Shown here: in pieces, positions 8,995 through 40,383 of the stretch
Position numbering within the stretch: the first letter of the stretch is position 1
How the letters are laid out: the number at the start of each line of letters is the position of its first letter
DNA from: Candidatus Yanofskybacteria bacterium
GTDB lineage: Bacteria > Patescibacteriota > Minisyncoccia > 2-02-FULL-40-12 > IGHO2-12-FULL-4
DNA: 64,000 bases
Direction of reading: 5' to 3'
NCBI GenBank assembly: GCA_016185525.1
Contig: JACPNK010000006.1
Span: 115,440 to 179,439 of the forward strand
The notes under the pieces: generated by a model
What the model was told of the DNA's origin: nothing
Database searches by the model: none
The model's input: the letters and a program-made list of their open reading frames with translations, nothing else
Position numbers and translations under genes: made by a program

Positions 8995-9531
8995 TTGTCT
9001 ATAGAAAAAAGGAAACAAGCAGAGGAAGTTTTGTTTGATCTTTGTCGTAAATGTTCTGCTACGCCAGTTTTAGAGGTTTTGTTGGATCTCCGGGACCTAC
9101 ACAATTTTTACAAATTACCCGTTTGGCTGGAAGATGAGAATGGCTGTAATGTTTTTTCGGGTATTGTAAAAAATCTGGCTTCAAAGCCCAAGAAGCAAAG
9201 CTTTTCTATCGTTGAGGCAAATTTTTTGGCCAGCATGCTTTTGTGGCCGGAACTGCAAGAATATGCGGACAGTAATTCGCGTCTTGCAATTCTTTACGCT
9301 TTGGAAAACTCGTCTTTTCACGCTATTTTTGCGACACTGGCTCAACATATGGAGTTTCTGAGCAGTGTTTATGTAAGGGAGCCGGCTACCACTCATCGCA
9401 GTGCCGCTTTGGGCAAAGAGCTGGAAATGATCAGGAGGCTTATTCTAAAATGCGGCAGTGGCACAGAAAGTTTGGTGGCTGAAAACAGGCGGAGAGTTGA
9501 AGAAAAAAAGAAGGAAAACAAAGACACTTAA
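8995..9531 (+). CDS. hypothetical protein
   Basis: 178-aa ORF with an upstream promoter-like sequence and a downstream terminator. Confidence 0.5.
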   Translation: MSIEKRKQAEEVLFDLCRKCSATPVLEVLLDLRDLHNFYKLPVWLEDENGCNVFSGIVKNLASKPKKQSFSIVEANFLASMLLWPELQEYADSNSRLAILYALENSSFHAIFATLAQHMEFLSSVYVREPATTHRSAALGKELEMIRRLILKCGSGTESLVAENRRRVEEKKKENKDT

Positions 9532-11725: not shown

Positions 11726-13117
11726 CTATCTTGGTTTGACCAAGGGTCCATGCTCCGTGTCTTCTATTTGGTAGCCTTTTGAACTTATTTGCCGGCGCAG
11801 GTCGTCGGCTTCGGAGTAGCGCTTGTCTCGTCGCAGTTTCTCGCGCGTATCAATCATATCCAAGATCTCATTCGGGGTCTTTTTTGTTTTTCTGGGGATT
11901 ATGCCCAAAATGTTGTTGAACTCTTCAAAAAGTTTTTTTATTTTTTTGGCTGATTTTTTATCAACTTTATTTTCAGCCAACAATGGATTTAACTCTTTTA
12001 TCATTTTAAAAATAGCGGCAATGGCTTGAGGAGTGTTAAAATCGTCGTCCATAGCTTCCAAGAATTCCTTCCTTGTTTCAAGCAAGATTTCCCCTGCGCC
12101 ACTGAGAAGTTGAACTTCTAAGCGGCGGATATTTGATAATTTGCGCAGAAATTCTTCGATTCTTTGGATACCGGCCCAAGAAGATTTTATCGCTTCTTCG
12201 CGATAATCAATAGGCGAACGGTAGTGAGTGGACAAAACAAGAAAACGCAAAGCCTCTGCGGAATATTTTTTAAGAGTGTCTCTGATGGTTATAAAGTTGC
12301 CAAGAGATTTGGACATTTTCTGGCCGTTGATAGTCAGAAAACCGGTGTGGAGCCAATACTTTACAAAAGGTTTCTTGCCGGAAATTGACTCCATTTGGGC
12401 TATTTCCGCTTCGTGGTGAGGGAAAATTAAATCTCTGGCTCCGCCGTGCAGATCGTACTGCTCCCCGAAATGCTTTTCGGTAATTGCCGTGTCTTCAATG
12501 TGCCAGCCGGGCCGCCCTTCTCCCAGTTCTGTTTTCCATTTTGGTTCTCCCGGTTTTGAAAACTTCCACAAGTTAAAATCGCCCTTGTTCTTTTTATTGA
12601 CGCTTTCGTCTATGCGACTTACGGCATCTTCCGCGCTTTCGGTTGTGCGACCGGAAAGCTTGCCATATTCCGGAAATTTTTTTAAGTCAAAGTAAAAACC
12701 GTCACTAGGAATTTCGTAAGCAAAGCCTTTTTCCTTCAGCCTTTTAACTTGCGATACGATTTGTTTGATATACTTTGTCGCCGGAGCGTATTTATAGACA
12801 CTGGTAATGCCAAGCGATTTTACATCTTGGTAGTAAGCTTTTTCAAATTCTTTAGCCAGAGTCAGCGGTTCTTTGTTTTCCTGTTTGGCTTTCGCGATTA
12901 TTTTATCTTCTATGTCGGTAATGTTCTGCAGGTATTTAACCCTGTAGCCTTTGTATTTGAGGTATTTGGCGATGACGTCAAAAGAAATATAAGTACGCGC
13001 GTGGCCGATATGCGAGTAATCATAAACCGTCGGTCCGCAGACAAACATATTCACCTTTTTGCCTTGGCGCGGCACAAATTCTTCTTTTTGTCTGGTTAGA
13101 GAATTATAGATTTGCAT
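11726..13117 (-). CDS. cysS: cysteinyl-tRNA synthetase
   Basis: HIGH (HIGHARTY) and KMSKS motifs with class I CysRS architecture. Confidence 0.9.
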   Translation of the reverse strand: MQIYNSLTRQKEEFVPRQGKKVNMFVCGPTVYDYSHIGHARTYISFDVIAKYLKYKGYRVKYLQNITDIEDKIIAKAKQENKEPLTLAKEFEKAYYQDVKSLGITSVYKYAPATKYIKQIVSQVKRLKEKGFAYEIPSDGFYFDLKKFPEYGKLSGRTTESAEDAVSRIDESVNKKNKGDFNLWKFSKPGEPKWKTELGEGRPGWHIEDTAITEKHFGEQYDLHGGARDLIFPHHEAEIAQMESISGKKPFVKYWLHTGFLTINGQKMSKSLGNFITIRDTLKKYSAEALRFLVLSTHYRSPIDYREEAIKSSWAGIQRIEEFLRKLSNIRRLEVQLLSGAGEILLETRKEFLEAMDDDFNTPQAIAAIFKMIKELNPLLAENKVDKKSAKKIKKLFEEFNNILGIIPRKTKKTPNEILDMIDTREKLRRDKRYSEADDLRRQISSKGYQIEDTEHGPLVKPR

Positions 13118-20587: not shown

Positions 20588-20626
20588 ATCAAGGTTGAAC
20601 CTTGATTTATAAGGCGTCGCCTTGAT
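20588..20626. repeat. two adjacent palindromes of the caagg-N-ccttg family
   Basis: atcaaggttgaaccttgat then aaggcgtcgcctt; further copies at 314..332 and 21165..21182. Confidence 0.8.
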
Positions 20627-20801
20627 ATTTCAATTTGTCGATCCTTATTCACCTTGGCAAAGAGGTACTAACGAAAATACCAACAGGCTTATCCGAATTT
20701 GAAATTAAAAAAGCCGAGATTAGACTTAATTCTCGGCTCAGATAGAGGTTAAACCTCTATCATAAAAGGGGTGGAGTTCTAAAGAAATTTCACAATCTTA
20801 G

Positions 20802-21080: not shown

Positions 21081-21515
21081 AGCAATCTCCTTTTTCGGGT
21101 GCTAATTTATATAGTACACAAAAATCAAAATAAAGTCAATCAAACTGCAATGGCTTAAGGTATGTCAAGGCGTCGCCTTGATATTTCAGCTTTTTCCGGT
21201 GTGGGGCTTTTTTATTGCAAAATTATGTCTTGGTGCCGAGCTTGGTTGAGGTTTGGTCACTTTCCGTCGAATATGGCTGAGCAAAGACAAATAAACGAAA
21301 ACTTTAGAAATCAAGGCCGGTAATAAAAAATTGGTGGGATGGTTTCGACCGGTACCAATTTTTTGTCGGCTTGATGATAAAGTTGAGTATTATTTGTTTG
21401 CGAGGTCCATCTCGTAAGGAAAGTGATCAGACCGAAACTTTAAAAATCTACCCTTTATTAACTCTCTCCGCCCCGAACAAATTGCCTTGCAATTTAACGG
21501 GGTAAATATACTCTC

Positions 21516-26339: not shown

Positions 26340-27269
26340 TTAGACTTTTTCCAAAAGTCTACCGTAACCGTTTATAAACTCTTTGGTGTTTAGCACTTTT
26401 CCTCCTTCAAGCTGGAGTTTTAACAGCTCTAAATAATCCTTAGCGCAAGGCATAATCAAAAGACCGTTTTTTTGATAAATTTTTCCACTTAGAAGTTCTC
26501 CACTTAGAAGTTCAACTTCTAAGTGACTTTTATGAATTTTGCAGTCAATAATTTTTAATATTTTATTTTGCCACTTAAACCATATTCCCGGCCATTTGTG
26601 AAAGGCGCGAAATTGGTTGTAAATTTCTTCGGCTGTTTTGTGCCAGTTTATTTTGCCGTCTTCTTTGGTAATAATTTTAGTGAAGGTGGCTTGCGACTCG
26701 TCTTGCGGTTGAGGTGTGGTTTTTCCACTAAGATATTTCGGTAATAACTTAAGTAATAAGCCAGCACCCTTTTTCACCAGACGCATTTTTAGGTCATAGT
26801 ATTTGTCATCCGGCGCGATTGGTTCTTGTTCCATTCCTAAGACGGGTCCGTGGTCAACTTTTTCGTCCAGCACAAAGACCGTTACGCCGGTCTCTTTTTC
26901 GCCGTTAAGCAGGGCGTACTGGATGGGGGACGGGCCGCGGTATTTCGGTAACAGCGAACCGTGGATATTGAGTAAACCATGTTTCGGTAGGTGCAAAAAC
27001 CGTTCAGGAATAATTTTTCCGTAATCTACAACAATTCCGACTGTGGATTGTTTGGCAATTTCTTCAATGCGAGCCAAAGACGGGTCATCTTTTTTAAAAT
27101 TTTCCGGCTGAAGCACTTCAATATTGTGAGATAGGGCTAACTGCTCGGCGGGTGTTGCCGTTTGGCTGTCCGGCGCGGTTACCACAGCCACAACAGTATA
27201 GTCAGCTTGAATCAGCGCTTCCAATACGGGCGTGGCAAAATCCGAAGTGCCAAAGAAAATAGTTTTCAT
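26340..27269 (-). CDS. fmt: methionyl-tRNA formyltransferase
   Basis: N-terminal formyltransferase domain (IFFGTSDFA, HGSLLPKYRG) and C-terminal domain; downstream of def. Confidence 0.9.
   Translation of the reverse strand: MKTIFFGTSDFATPVLEALIQADYTVVAVVTAPDSQTATPAEQLALSHNIEVLQPENFKKDDPSLARIEEIAKQSTVGIVVDYGKIIPERFLHLPKHGLLNIHGSLLPKYRGPSPIQYALLNGEKETGVTVFVLDEKVDHGPVLGMEQEPIAPDDKYYDLKMRLVKKGAGLLLKLLPKYLSGKTTPQPQDESQATFTKIITKEDGKINWHKTAEEIYNQFRAFHKWPGIWFKWQNKILKIIDCKIHKSHLEVELLSGELLSGKIYQKNGLLIMPCAKDYLELLKLQLEGGKVLNTKEFINGYGRLLEKV
26486..26525. repeat. REP-like palindrome (RAYT-associated family) in-frame inside fmt
   Basis: 25-bp perfect palindrome cacttagaagttcaacttctaagtg plus adjacent half-site direct repeat ccacttagaagtt; encodes LEVELLSGELLSGK. 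Confidence 0.85.
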
Positions 27270-33500: not shown

Positions 33501-33809
33501 ATGTCGAGTTTTGTATTTCGTTGCACGACGAGAGGCAGCCATACTTTTTTGGAGTTTAATACTCCGGTGAAAATATTTGACTCTGTTAGCGGAGCACGCT
33601 TAATTCTGGAGGAATTACTTGACTTTGAGAAACAAAATCCGGACATGCATATTGTTGGTTGGAAACCGGAAACACACATGGCCACAAATACTAGATTTGG
33701 CATTCTCACCCCTGTTTGTTTTGGAATTTGGATTGACCATGAGCCAAGAGAAAAGGAACCTGAAGACTGTGACTTTGATGCTCTTGAAAGGGCACTAGGA
33801 CAAGATTGA
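33501..33809 (+). CDS. hypothetical small protein, paralog A (WIDHE family)
   Basis: 102 aa, ~35% identical to the 34750..35055 product; shared motifs IL..L..FE.QN, WIDHE and ALxQD. Confidence 0.6.
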   Translation: MSSFVFRCTTRGSHTFLEFNTPVKIFDSVSGARLILEELLDFEKQNPDMHIVGWKPETHMATNTRFGILTPVCFGIWIDHEPREKEPEDCDFDALERALGQD

Positions 33810-33833
33810 ACCCGCGTTTCGCGGGTTTTTTTT
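33808..33833 (+). terminator. rho-independent terminator
   Basis: aacccgcgtttcgcgggtt hairpin plus a T-run; near-identical to 35054..35078. Confidence 0.8.
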
Positions 33834-33847
33834 ATTTCTTAAAAATC

Positions 33848-33883
33848 TACTGAGAAGCTACTGAGAAGTTGAACTTATCAGTA
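33848..33883. repeat. REP palindrome with half-site direct repeat, 5' flank of the RAYT gene
   Basis: tactgagaag x2 half-sites, then the 25-bp palindrome tactgagaagttgaacttatcagta. Confidence 0.85.
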
Positions 33884-33905
33884 GAACATGTTAAATTTCT
33901 GAAAT

Positions 33906-34550
33906 ATGCATAAAGAATATTTTACCAATGGGGAATTTTACCATGTGTATAATCGCGGAAACAATAAGCGAAAAATTTTTTTGGATCAAAGAGACTTTAA
34001 AAGATTTTTTCAAAGCATACGGGAATTCAATTCGGAAGAACCGATTGGTAGTATATATCTTAATTCTTTTAAGGACGCCTCGCTTAGAAGTTCAACTTCT
34101 AAGTTAGTTGATTTTGTTTGTTTTTGTTTAAATCCAAATCATTATCATTTTATTCTCAAGCAACTAAAAGAAAGGGGTATTGAAAAGTTTTTACATAGAC
34201 TTGGCACGGGTTATACTAAATATTTTAATGAAAAACATAAATGCAGTGGCTCTCTTTTTCAGGGCAGGTATAAAGCGATACACTTAAACTCTAATGAATA
34301 CCTACTACATCTTAGTGCCTATGTGAATTTAAATTATGAAGTTCACCAACTGAGAAGTTCAACTTATCAGTGTGATTATAAATCTAGTTGGGCAGAATAT
34401 CAAAACAACTTGGTAGAAAGTATATGTAATAAAGACATTGTACTTTCTCAGTTTAGAAACTTTGATAAGTATAGGGAATTTGCAGTTAATGCTATTCAAA
34501 TAAGTAGGACCAAAAAAGATATGGAAAAGTTGTTATTGGAAGAGGTCTGA
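33906..34550 (+). CDS. REP-associated tyrosine transposase (RAYT; IS200-like HuH Y1 transposase, TnpA_REP)
   Basis: YHVYNRGNNKRKIF N-terminus, HuH motif NHYHFIL, GRYKA and Y..N C-terminal tyrosine region are typical of COG1943 RAYTs; the gene is flanked by inverted REPs. Confidence 0.8.
   Translation: MHKEYFTNGEFYHVYNRGNNKRKIFLDQRDFKRFFQSIREFNSEEPIGSIYLNSFKDASLRSSTSKLVDFVCFCLNPNHYHFILKQLKERGIEKFLHRLGTGYTKYFNEKHKCSGSLFQGRYKAIHLNSNEYLLHLSAYVNLNYEVHQLRSSTYQCDYKSSWAEYQNNLVESICNKDIVLSQFRNFDKYREFAVNAIQISRTKKDMEKLLLEEV
34083..34103. repeat. REP palindrome inside the RAYT coding sequence, copy 1 (in-frame)
   Basis: cttagaagttcaacttctaag encoding LRSSTSK. Confidence 0.85.
34350..34370. repeat. REP palindrome inside the RAYT coding sequence, copy 2 (in-frame)
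   Basis: ctgagaagttcaacttatcag encoding LRSSTYQ. Confidence 0.8.
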
Positions 34551-34557
34551 CTCTGAT

Positions 34558-34645
34558 CACTGATAAGTCACTGATAAGTTGAACTTCTCAGTAAAAACTT
34601 CTCAGTAAAAACTTCTCAGTAAACTTCTCAGTAAATTTCTCAGTA
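34558..34645. repeat. REP palindrome plus tandem half-site array, 3' flank of the RAYT gene
   Basis: cactgataagt x2, palindrome cactgataagttgaacttctcagta (inverted relative to the 5' REP), then (aa)aacttctcagta x4 tandem. Confidence 0.9.
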
Positions 34646-34749: not shown

Positions 34750-35055
34750 ATGTCTCGTACGTCTCACATGTCTCATGTTTTCAAGAAAATACACAAGGGT
34801 GGTCGTTCGTTTTTCATGCTAACTGGCAGTAATAATATGGAGGCAGTAGGCAGGAAAATTTTAGATGTTCTTAGCGAATTTGAAGATCAAAATCTAGGCA
34901 AAAAGATAACAAACTGGAGGGCTAATATAAGGTATGTTACCGATGTGGAACCACCTTTCTTTTCTTGTGCTCTTTGGGTTGACCACGAGTCGTGTTGGTT
35001 AAGAGATAAGCCTCCGTCAACAAGCGAACTTGATAACGCTCTAGACCAAGATTAA
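34750..35055 (+). CDS. hypothetical small protein, paralog B (WVDHE family)
   Basis: 101 aa homologous to 33501..33809; RBS AAAGGA upstream. Confidence 0.6.
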   Translation: MSRTSHMSHVFKKIHKGGRSFFMLTGSNNMEAVGRKILDVLSEFEDQNLGKKITNWRANIRYVTDVEPPFFSCALWVDHESCWLRDKPPSTSELDNALDQD

Positions 35056-35078
35056 ACCCGCATTTTGCGGGTTTTTTT
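35054..35078 (+). terminator. rho-independent terminator
   Basis: aaacccgcattttgcgggttt plus a T-run. Confidence 0.8.
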
Positions 35079-40340: not shown

Positions 40341-40383
40341 TGTAAGGCCTACTATAGAGGCTAAGCCTCTATAGTAGGGAAAC

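Follow-up and report, generated by a model that had tools for sequence, protein, structure and literature searches.

Palindromes and half-sites at a RAYT-like gene

What single-copy genes for REP-associated tyrosine transposases (RAYTs; REP, repetitive extragenic palindrome) do, and why they persist, is a long-standing question, and most work on it has concerned proteobacteria in which REPs number in the hundreds. The question is raised again by a RAYT-like gene of the HUH family at 33906..34550 of the window, by which we mean the whole 64,000-nt stretch of DNA analysed here (JACPNK010000006.1, 115,440-179,439; all positions are window-based). The source is a metagenome-assembled genome (MAG) of a Candidatus Yanofskybacteria, a bacterium of the Candidate Phyla Radiation (CPR), in agreement with a first-pass annotation that had described the locus as a complete REPtron in a CPR-like genome. 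We found that the gene and four copies of a 23-bp palindrome form a fixed module that is conserved among the Patescibacteria relatives sampled, that the palindrome is genome- and paralog-specific and co-diverges with the protein, and that extra copies are sparse and lie mostly in frame in tolerant loops of ordinary genes. The explanation that we favour, with moderate confidence, is a domesticated endonuclease-transposase of the RAYT/TnpAREP type that acts on single-stranded DNA (ssDNA) and co-evolves with a small set of cognate hairpins, which it is predicted to bind and cleave.

We re-read the sequence, and the open reading frame (ORF), the 5' and 3' palindromes and the half-sites were all located where the annotation had placed them. 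The ORF flanks carry inverted versions of one imperfect 23-bp palindrome, plus arrays of half-sites, and the gene is indeed bracketed by the inverted pair at 33860-33882 and 34570-34592. This was half of the architecture: two further copies inside the ORF had been missed, as had copies in cysS and fmt. The features at the gene are the following.

33849..33859, plus strand: partial left half-site ACTGAGAAGCT, an 11-nt duplication just 5' of the 5' palindrome
33858..33884, unstranded: 5' palindrome CTACTGAGAAGTTGAACTTATCAGTAG, with the 23-nt core ACTGAGAAGTTGAACTTATCAGT at 33860-33882
33906..34550, plus strand: RAYT-like Y1 HUH gene, 214 amino acids (aa); profile match, alignment and AlphaFold2 (AF2) model
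34082..34104, unstranded: internal palindrome 1, GCTTAGAAGTTCAACTTCTAAGT, perfect part at 34083-34103
34349..34371, unstranded: internal palindrome 2, ACTGAGAAGTTCAACTTATCAGT, exact reverse complement of the 3' copy
34559..34569, plus strand: partial left half-site ACTGATAAGTC, an 11-nt duplication 5' of the 3' palindrome
34570..34592, unstranded: 3' palindrome ACTGATAAGTTGAACTTCTCAGT, starting 20 nt past the stop codon
34593..34645, plus strand: array of four tandem right half-sites, AACTTCTCAGTA(AA), with a period of 12-14 nt

The 5' palindrome is centred 35 nt before the ATG and has one imperfection, a G.A mismatch between core positions 7/19; folded as ssDNA it gave -8.1 kcal/mol (z = -5.7), within the range of -4 to -9.4 kcal/mol for the window copies. 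Both internal palindromes are in frame and fall in surface loops of the protein. The first encodes LRSSTSK (aa ~60-66), in a loop ahead of the strand that leads to the HuH motif, and the second encodes LRSSTYQ (aa ~148-154), directly past the helix with the catalytic-type tyrosine. The right half-sites of the 3' array lie at 34596-34606, 34610-34620, 34622-34632 and 34634-34644, the last being degenerate with one mismatch, and each unit begins at the first base past the dyad centre.

The half-site ACTGAKAAGTT (one mismatch allowed) has 17 matches in the window against 2.48 expected, a number that none of 100 shuffles reached, and the core AGAAGTTSAACTT has 12 strand-matches, corresponding to 6 sites, against 0.5 strand-matches (~0.25 sites) expected. 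With counts so far over expectation, the palindrome and half-site pattern is more than chance. The half-sites fall into variants A (ACTGAGAAGTT), B (ACTGATAAGTT) and C (ACTTAGAAGTT). They combine as A-G-B' in the 5' copy, as A-C-B' in internal copy 2 and as B-G-A' in the 3' copy; perfect palindromes of C type are seen in internal copy 1 and in fmt. Because the 5', internal-2 and 3' copies share one G.A / T.C mismatch, in both orientations, they appear to be copies of one another and not palindromes that arose independently.

The gene and its palindromes are also present in six independent Logan contigs, showing that the palindromes are not assembly artefacts. The Logan contigs L001-L004 of the window locus all end 61 nt past the stop codon, within the half-site array, and the short-read contigs L006, L007, L023 and L036 likewise end at or just past such palindromes. 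The repeats thus interrupt the assembly of these genomes. A search of Rfam at a permissive threshold gave sub-threshold chance matches only, all at terminators or flanks, and no known RNA family thus explains the palindromes.

The encoded protein resembles TnpAREP in fold

The ORF reads YHVYNRGN near its N-terminus, followed by N78-H79-Y80-H81, with the HuH motif H79-Y80-H81 encoded at 34140-34148, and by the catalytic-type Y139 in AYVNLN (codon 34320-34322). The annotation had read the N-terminal motif, the HuH motif and a C-terminal tyrosine region as hallmarks of RAYTs, and further analysis supported a Y1 HUH enzyme of this kind. The Pfam profile PF01797 (Y1_Tnp) matched residues 63-141 with 28 bits, above its gathering cut-off of 23 (E = 2.6e-6), and H79, H81 and Y139 were invariant in an alignment of 28 homologs. 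The AF2 model of the window protein (predicted local distance difference test, pLDDT, 82; predicted template modelling score, pTM, 0.82) has the HuH fold that had been anticipated: its top Foldseek match was 4er8_A, Escherichia coli TnpAREP with a REP hairpin (E = 3e-6, TM 0.64), and the next were the TnpA proteins of ISDra2 and IS608, so that the model matches 2xo6 and 2vjv besides 4er8.

The tyrosine motif reads YVNLNY in the window protein, where class 2 has Y---NP (PMC6006769); the family keeps the Asn, and the Pro position varies (Y, D, N, P, T). Other signatures of the protein are NPNHYHF, LFQGRYK and KSSW (FQG, SSW), which stand alongside AYVNLN. No Pfam match to a helix-turn-helix (HTH) or DnaA_C domain was found in the window protein. 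The pLDDT of the model falls under 50 in just two segments, residues 57-59 and 149-156, both at the palindrome-encoded peptides, and the block of residues 51-60 averages 57. Taken together, these data support the assignment of the window protein to the Y1 HUH enzymes of the RAYT/TnpAREP kind, with catalysis as a prediction from the model and the invariant residues.

The gene and its palindromes form a four-site module

Homologs of the window protein are numerous; more than 3200 were found, nearly all in Patescibacteria and typically 50-65% identical to it, and 120 listed homologs were 203-337 aa long. We surveyed 82 loci (2 loci of relatives and 80 metagenome loci) with purpose-written scripts; both the loci and the homolog sets were chosen for intact matches. 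In 74 of the 82 loci, at least two copies of a palindrome of the locus's own, usually of the form ACTTGG-NNNN-loop-NNNN-CCAAGT, stood at fixed positions. These are centred at -26 from the ATG, at aa ~63, at aa ~155 and at +14 past the stop codon, and among relatives they were occupied in 67/72 (promoter), 52/74 (internal 1), 46/74 (internal 2) and 55/71 (post-stop) cases. The 3' copy begins 1-20 nt past the stop codon across loci. All four copies were found in 20 of the 69 loci for which both flanks were available.

Both internal positions are conserved in the protein alignment, and the two peptides covary within each protein: LGGETSK occurs with LGGETSK, LGDSVSK with LGDSVSK, and LGSSTPK with LGSSTPK. 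We considered whether LGxxxSK peptides are conserved for protein function and rejected this, since they form low-confidence loops of variable length, give way to unrelated sequence wherever the palindrome is missing, and match the non-coding flank copies at the DNA level.

The placement of the internal copies would suit a structural switch, in which recombination or HUH-mediated strand exchange between these self-complementary sites excises or inverts the 267-bp segment carrying HuH and Tyr; the whole gene could be affected likewise through the flank copies. In either case the gene would be switched off and on. The internal copies bracket exactly the catalytic core, the loop orientation at each position flips freely between relatives, and the window copies are half-site hybrids. 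However, no inverted or deleted form occurred among the 82 loci or the 120 listed homologs, sets chosen for intact matches as stated above. Furthermore, with four copies in just 20/69 loci and many loci without one internal copy, such a switch cannot be essential. Loop flips in short hairpins, including that of the central G or C in the window, can also arise by enzyme-free template switching. We regard a switch as highly improbable.

We next compared the palindromes with each other and with the proteins. Palindrome identity was 0.97 within a locus, a figure somewhat inflated by the way in which groups were defined, against 0.67 between loci, and 63% of the within-locus copies were identical; 49 distinct inner sequences were found among 74 loci. 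The identity of the arms tracked that of the protein with the palindrome-encoded loops excluded (r = 0.28; 0/999 Mantel permutations reached the observed value). Palindromes also differed between paralogs in one genome. Divergent second paralogs at L080:6515-7183 and L077:4073-4654, each 3.5 kb downstream of the first, have their own, different palindromes. The L080 paralog carries CGAAGGTTTAACCTTCG within its ORF near aa 58 and again at the stop codon, and the related TTACAAAGGTTTAACCTTTGTTA centred at -24, which are the promoter-proximal, in-gene and end-of-gene positions of the usual layout. In the L077 paralog copies were found on the two flanks only (TGACCTAAAC..GTTTAGGTCA, at -86 and +4).

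The syntenic orthologs L083, L087, L088, L089 and L098 have different palindromes at the same chromosomal place, suggesting that the module is inherited in place while its copies change together. Synteny blocks are kept within sublineages, neighbour genes differ between many loci, and the protein, at about 50-77% identity, has diverged together with the host lineage. Within the range examined (loci of up to 20 kb and the 64-kb window), one gene copy was present in the window and in 80 of the 82 loci; the pairs in L080 and L077 are divergent paralogs and thus not identical. The window contains just one HUH gene. The HUH gene is inherited largely vertically and is single-copy in all but two of the sampled loci.

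These data bear on the alternative that the locus is an autonomous insertion sequence (IS), a unit of about 790 bp from the 5' to the 3' palindrome that resembles IS200/IS605 elements with their subterminal hairpins and moves as a whole. The hairpins do lie at fixed short distances from both gene ends, and contigs often break at the ends, in addition to the differences in neighbour genes between many loci. But an element of this kind would not be expected to stand once per locus in 80/82 loci and once in 64 kb, with the double cases divergent, nor to keep its synteny within sublineages while the palindrome changes and the protein co-diverges with the host. Its tyrosine motif is Y...N, not the Y...Q of IS200. 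No homolog was found in phage records, and plasmid homologs were distant (24-28% identity); the three that we inspected, from other phyla, had no four-palindrome layout. We consider an autonomous IS very unlikely.

Extra half-sites beside the flank copies were found in 14 of the 74 loci and are recurrent but not universal, the window having the longest array. Left half-sites lie upstream of the 5' palindrome, as the duplication at 33849..33859 does in the window, and right half-sites downstream of the 3' palindrome. The stems carry extensions that are specific to position, CCAC..GTGG at the 5' copy and CAAC..GTTG at the internal copies.

Copies elsewhere are sparse and mostly in frame

The window has two dispersed copies in 63 kb, both in housekeeping genes.

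12101..12123, unstranded: dispersed copy in cysS (11726..13117, minus strand), in frame, read as RLEVQLLSG
26487..26524, unstranded: dispersed copy and extra half-site in fmt (26340..27269, minus strand), in frame, read as HLEVELLSGELLSG

The cysS copy sits in a loop of variable length across solved structures of cysteinyl-tRNA synthetase (CysRS). The fmt copy, at 26502, sits in a hypervariable loop next to its extra half-site, a 15-nt duplication of five codons; in the closest ortholog (79% identical) the sequence is missing and the protein is 5 aa shorter at this point. The 617 kb of flanking DNA from relatives contained 15 extra copies of the locus's own palindrome (~1 per 41 kb; ~0.01 copies expected by chance), 10 of which lie within ORFs of at least 100 aa. 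A related Yanofskybacteria MAG, JACOZX01, has at least four dispersed copies of a perfect A-type palindrome, some of them intergenic, and contigs of this MAG end at one of the copies. The palindrome would thus be a repeat that is mobile or copied, at low copy number.

The palindrome thus occurs beyond the locus, as the annotation had anticipated, but the dispersal like that of REPs or bacterial interspersed mosaic elements (BIMEs) that it had proposed was not borne out by two intragenic copies in the window and one per 41 kb in relatives. The name "complete REPtron" is only partly right. The HUH enzyme and the inverted flanking repeats stood, whereas the copies are sparse and mostly intragenic in place of abundant extragenic REPs, a GTAG tag is absent, and the score of the protein stayed under the RAYT cut-off.

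We also scanned a genome collection, in which the source genome was not included, for the palindrome. The scan gave 31 stretches against ~35 chance matches expected. Standing out were five stretches of one Yanofskybacteria relative, two of which are the same copy at overlapping contig ends, and clusters in Chloroflexota.

Several observations were made alongside. In unrelated Chloroflexota MAGs (Ardenticatenales, Promineifilaceae, BC3.16) the 15-nt core AGAAGTT[C/G]AACTTCT forms doublets and triplets in several places (L008, L011, L012, L015, L021, L022, L027, L030, L032, L034 and L038; for example L012:3016-3070, L030:5360-5395 and L030:6459-6492), with units 3-4 nt apart and alternating C/G centres, like a BIME cluster; no homolog of the window HUH family lay within these 8-kb stretches. 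Two intergenic palindrome families were seen in the window itself. TCAAGG-N5-CCTTGA has 3 copies (315-331, 20589-20605 and 21165-21181) against 0.08 expected, two of which are related by a flip of the loop, and also a half-site near 20612-20626; TAGAGG-N5-CCTCTA has 2 copies (20743-20759 and 40355-40371) against 0.03 expected. Directly 5' of the HUH gene of one relative, a giant ORF (L005:1-9897; 3910 aa called, with intein, NYN and Ig-like domain matches) holds an in-frame copy of that genome's palindrome at 9275-9297. One ORF of the Yanofskybacteria MAG JACPNJ01 contains two neighbouring palindromes (L020:745-790), both in frame and read as HLEVELLKLRSSTSKW, so that both reading frames of the repeat are used side by side.

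Palindrome families in the window that have no HUH gene nearby, and the core clusters in unrelated Chloroflexota, are what one might expect if the palindromes were, for example, sites of a different DNA-binding protein, uptake or restriction-related motifs or transcript-end hairpins, and were tied to the HUH gene by position only. Against this, the palindrome is concentrated at the gene, which has 4 of the 6 window copies, and from one genome to the next, or one paralog to the other in a single genome, it changes together with the gene. Since the neighbour genes vary, there is also no other linked candidate to which the palindromes could belong. We judge this alternative to be extremely unlikely.

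The copy in the putative promoter and the module ends

We then analyzed the region in front of the gene, where a putative promoter overlaps the 5' palindrome.

33869..33897, plus strand: putative promoter, a weak match

A -35-like TTGAAC (33869-33874) lies in the centre of the palindrome and is followed by a 17-nt spacer, a -10-like TAAATT (33892-33897), 8 nt and the ATG. A consensus promoter scan did not call this promoter of the window gene, and our assignment comes from the geometry seen family-wide. The commonest arrangement in relatives, from which the window geometry is shifted, is palindrome, 2 nt, TATAAT-like box, 6 nt, ATG. A box matching at least 5/6 positions and located 4-12 nt before the ATG was present at 41 of the 63 RAYT genes, compared with 117 of the 433 control ORFs. 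With TTGGNN of the left arm 17 nt upstream of the box, the palindrome would fill the -35 and spacer of a promoter for a leaderless mRNA, and the geometry in the window would likewise imply a leaderless or near-leaderless mRNA. The control itself showed that 27% of ordinary ORFs (loci L039-L118) have a TATAAT-like box (>=5/6) ending 4-12 nt before the first ATG, which hints that leaderless transcripts may be common in these Patescibacteria genomes.

The HUH gene is probably autoregulated through the promoter copy of the palindrome, which the protein would bind. An alternative is that the protein is nothing but a dimeric autoregulator that has lost transposition, and that the palindromes are its double-stranded sites: a main operator in the promoter, with auxiliary ones within and downstream of the gene that might serve in looping, for instance. 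Sites in other genes would then be chance or a small regulon, and the copies would resemble each other through selection for binding and not through copying. The 5' copy is located exactly in the -35/spacer, with fixed geometry in most loci; the half-sites of 10-11 bp, their iteron-like tandem arrangement, the very low copy number, the paralog-specific palindromes and the perfect but different palindromes at some internal sites would also suit an operator. However, the His-u-His motif and Tyr are invariant family-wide, which is unexpected if the protein only binds, and the Y1 enzymes that are known bind ssDNA hairpins (4er8, 2vjv). The mismatch common to three window copies, in both orientations, and the new lineage-specific copies in cysS and fmt argue for physical copying. 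A pure operator is, on balance, rather unlikely.

The module is flanked by two small paralogous genes, at 33501-33809 (102 aa) and 34750-35055 (101 aa), neither of which had a Pfam or NCBIfam match. Each ends in a near-identical terminator with a GC stem and a T run (33808-33828 and 35054-35074). A recent tandem duplication around the module was rejected because the two genes are just 29% identical.

A model for the module

We propose that the enzyme recognises the palindrome as an ssDNA hairpin, as do E. coli TnpAREP and IS608 TnpA, and that it would cut and rejoin DNA next to or within the hairpin. Such reactions could copy or replace hairpins, by which the copies in a genome would be kept alike and new ones would occasionally be seeded; in gene-dense genomes, new copies would persist only where they are in frame. 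The half-site duplications beside the flank copies may be by-products of this processing or of slippage at hairpins. Protein bound to the promoter copy, which supplies the -35 and spacer, would exert negative feedback on its own transcription, and the post-stop copy could serve as a transcript-end hairpin.

A number of results weigh against this proposal of a domesticated RAYT-type enzyme. The RAYT equivalog of NCBIfam, NF047646 (REP_Tyr_transpos), scored only 28.2 bits, far under its cut-off of 80, so that the annotation's naming of the protein as a RAYT was not confirmed by that profile. The PDB sequences, searched with the profile of 28 homologs, returned nothing at E <= 0.01, and the link to TnpAREP came only from the fold comparison. 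The GT[AG]G guide tetranucleotide has no match at the 5' foot, where (C)CACTTGG or CAACTTGG is usual, and the GTAG at the end of the 5' copy is merely part of the stem on its 3' side. The copy number of the dispersed palindromes is far under that of classical REPs, and the motifs of the protein resemble those of a subclass, 2.1, for which the authors reported no REP-like hairpins (PMC6006769). As the stem extensions differ by position, a copied unit can be 23 nt long at most. In some loci (L059, and the window at internal copy 1) one internal site has a palindrome that is perfect but different, which means that selection for palindromy also acts on the individual sites. The promoter match in the window is weak (8/12). 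Finally, binding, cleavage, mobilisation, copying and autoregulation are all activities that we infer, for every member of the family.

A more far-reaching version is that the enzyme rewrites hairpin cassettes at fixed addresses, two of which lie in its own coding sequence, and that the module is a self-editing, self-regulating unit. Cutting and rejoining at or near the dyad would swap or replace half-hairpins between copies. This would account for the hybrid palindromes, for the arrays of half-sites and for the way in which all copies change in concert in syntenic orthologs. By such reactions the catalytic core, which lies between the internal copies, could also be removed and put back. If true, bacteria would have a new way of homogenising short sequence tracts independently of homology, and self-editing would have been kept in the reduced genomes of the sampled Patescibacteria because it is useful to the host. 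We think that such self-editing is unlikely.

The family is widespread in the reduced genomes of Patescibacteria, keeps its catalytic residues and has only a few cognate hairpins, each at a defined address. Its four fixed sites, the 49 natural specificity variants among 74 loci and the pairs of same-genome paralogs with different hairpins make it a compact comparative system that can be used to study hairpin recognition, protein-DNA co-evolution, autoregulation and how copies stay alike. Short palindromic inserts also shape loops of essential proteins (CysRS, Fmt) in CPR genomes, and they break short-read assemblies at these loci.

Comparison with known systems

In the literature we found no description of this family as a RAYT or REP in CPR/Patescibacteria. 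The nearest structural relative is the E. coli TnpAREP (RAYT, YafM) REPtron of subclass 2.2 (Quentin et al. 2018, PMC6006769; PDB 4er8), with which the family shares a single-domain Y1 HUH fold, inverted genome-specific hairpin repeats that bracket the gene, low gene copy number and co-evolution of repeat and gene. The window protein is, however, only 12% identical to TnpAREP, the stem is AT-rich or mixed, and the 5' foot has no GT[AG]G. The repeats number tens, by extrapolation, and not hundreds per genome and are mostly intragenic, and they lie at fixed flank distances, with the 5' copy within the promoter and two copies within the ORF.

The TnpA proteins of IS200/IS605 elements (IS608, ISDra2) share the HUH/Tyr fold, subterminal hairpins near both ends and a small single-gene unit. 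They differ in having Y...Q in place of the class-2-like Y...N; the protein described here is 60 aa longer, and multiple identical copies of its gene are not seen. Where IS200/IS605 elements have different left and right hairpins, the same palindrome stands here at both ends and in the gene.

In-frame short palindromes in housekeeping genes, including those for tRNA synthetases, of a reduced genome are likewise seen with the Rickettsia palindromic elements (RPEs), and intragenic REPs, including ones in tRNA synthetase genes, have been described (PMC3733652). The RPEs are longer and have no known cognate HUH gene, whereas the inserts here are 21-38 nt long and are tied to a linked HUH gene.

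In its motifs the family resembles subclass 2.1, the TIRYT proteins of "TIRtrons" (Di Nocera et al. 2013, PMC3733652; Quentin et al. 2018), by NH[YF]H, FQ, Y[IV]xLN and an SS(W) tail; this comparison was made by eye with Table 1 of PMC6006769 (NH[YF]H, FQ, Y[IV]HLNP, SS) and not with its profiles. TIRtrons also have low-copy flanking inverted repeats, some of which are self-complementary (PMC3733652). Yet subclass 2.1 proteins are longer, with HTH or DnaA_C-like tails, and their flanking terminal inverted repeats (TIRs) carry GGGGWSAS, while the window gene is flanked by hairpin palindromes and its product has no HTH/DnaA_C match in Pfam. The three distant plasmid homologs mentioned above, which look classic, do not share the four-palindrome layout.

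The closest precedent for the in-gene copies is subclass 2.4 (Bertels group 4; Cyanobacteria and Bacteroidetes), in which REPs lie in frame inside the tnpAREP gene (PMC6006769). As in the Patescibacteria family, these in-gene REPs keep the frame, fall in peripheral loops and occur in addition to flank copies. The insertions of subclass 2.4 vary in place and length and generally lie between HuH and Tyr, and its REPs are long or "double-foot" and GTAG-tagged, unlike the two fixed sites of the Patescibacteria family, before HuH and after Tyr, which are conserved among the sampled relatives and kept identical to the flank copies. The protein motifs differ as well, with FQ, NHYH and YVNLN here against WQ, NH[IFV]H and YIxNNP in subclass 2.4. 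In-frame REPs within tnpAREP genes are already known, and the four-site family of Patescibacteria is a variant of that arrangement.

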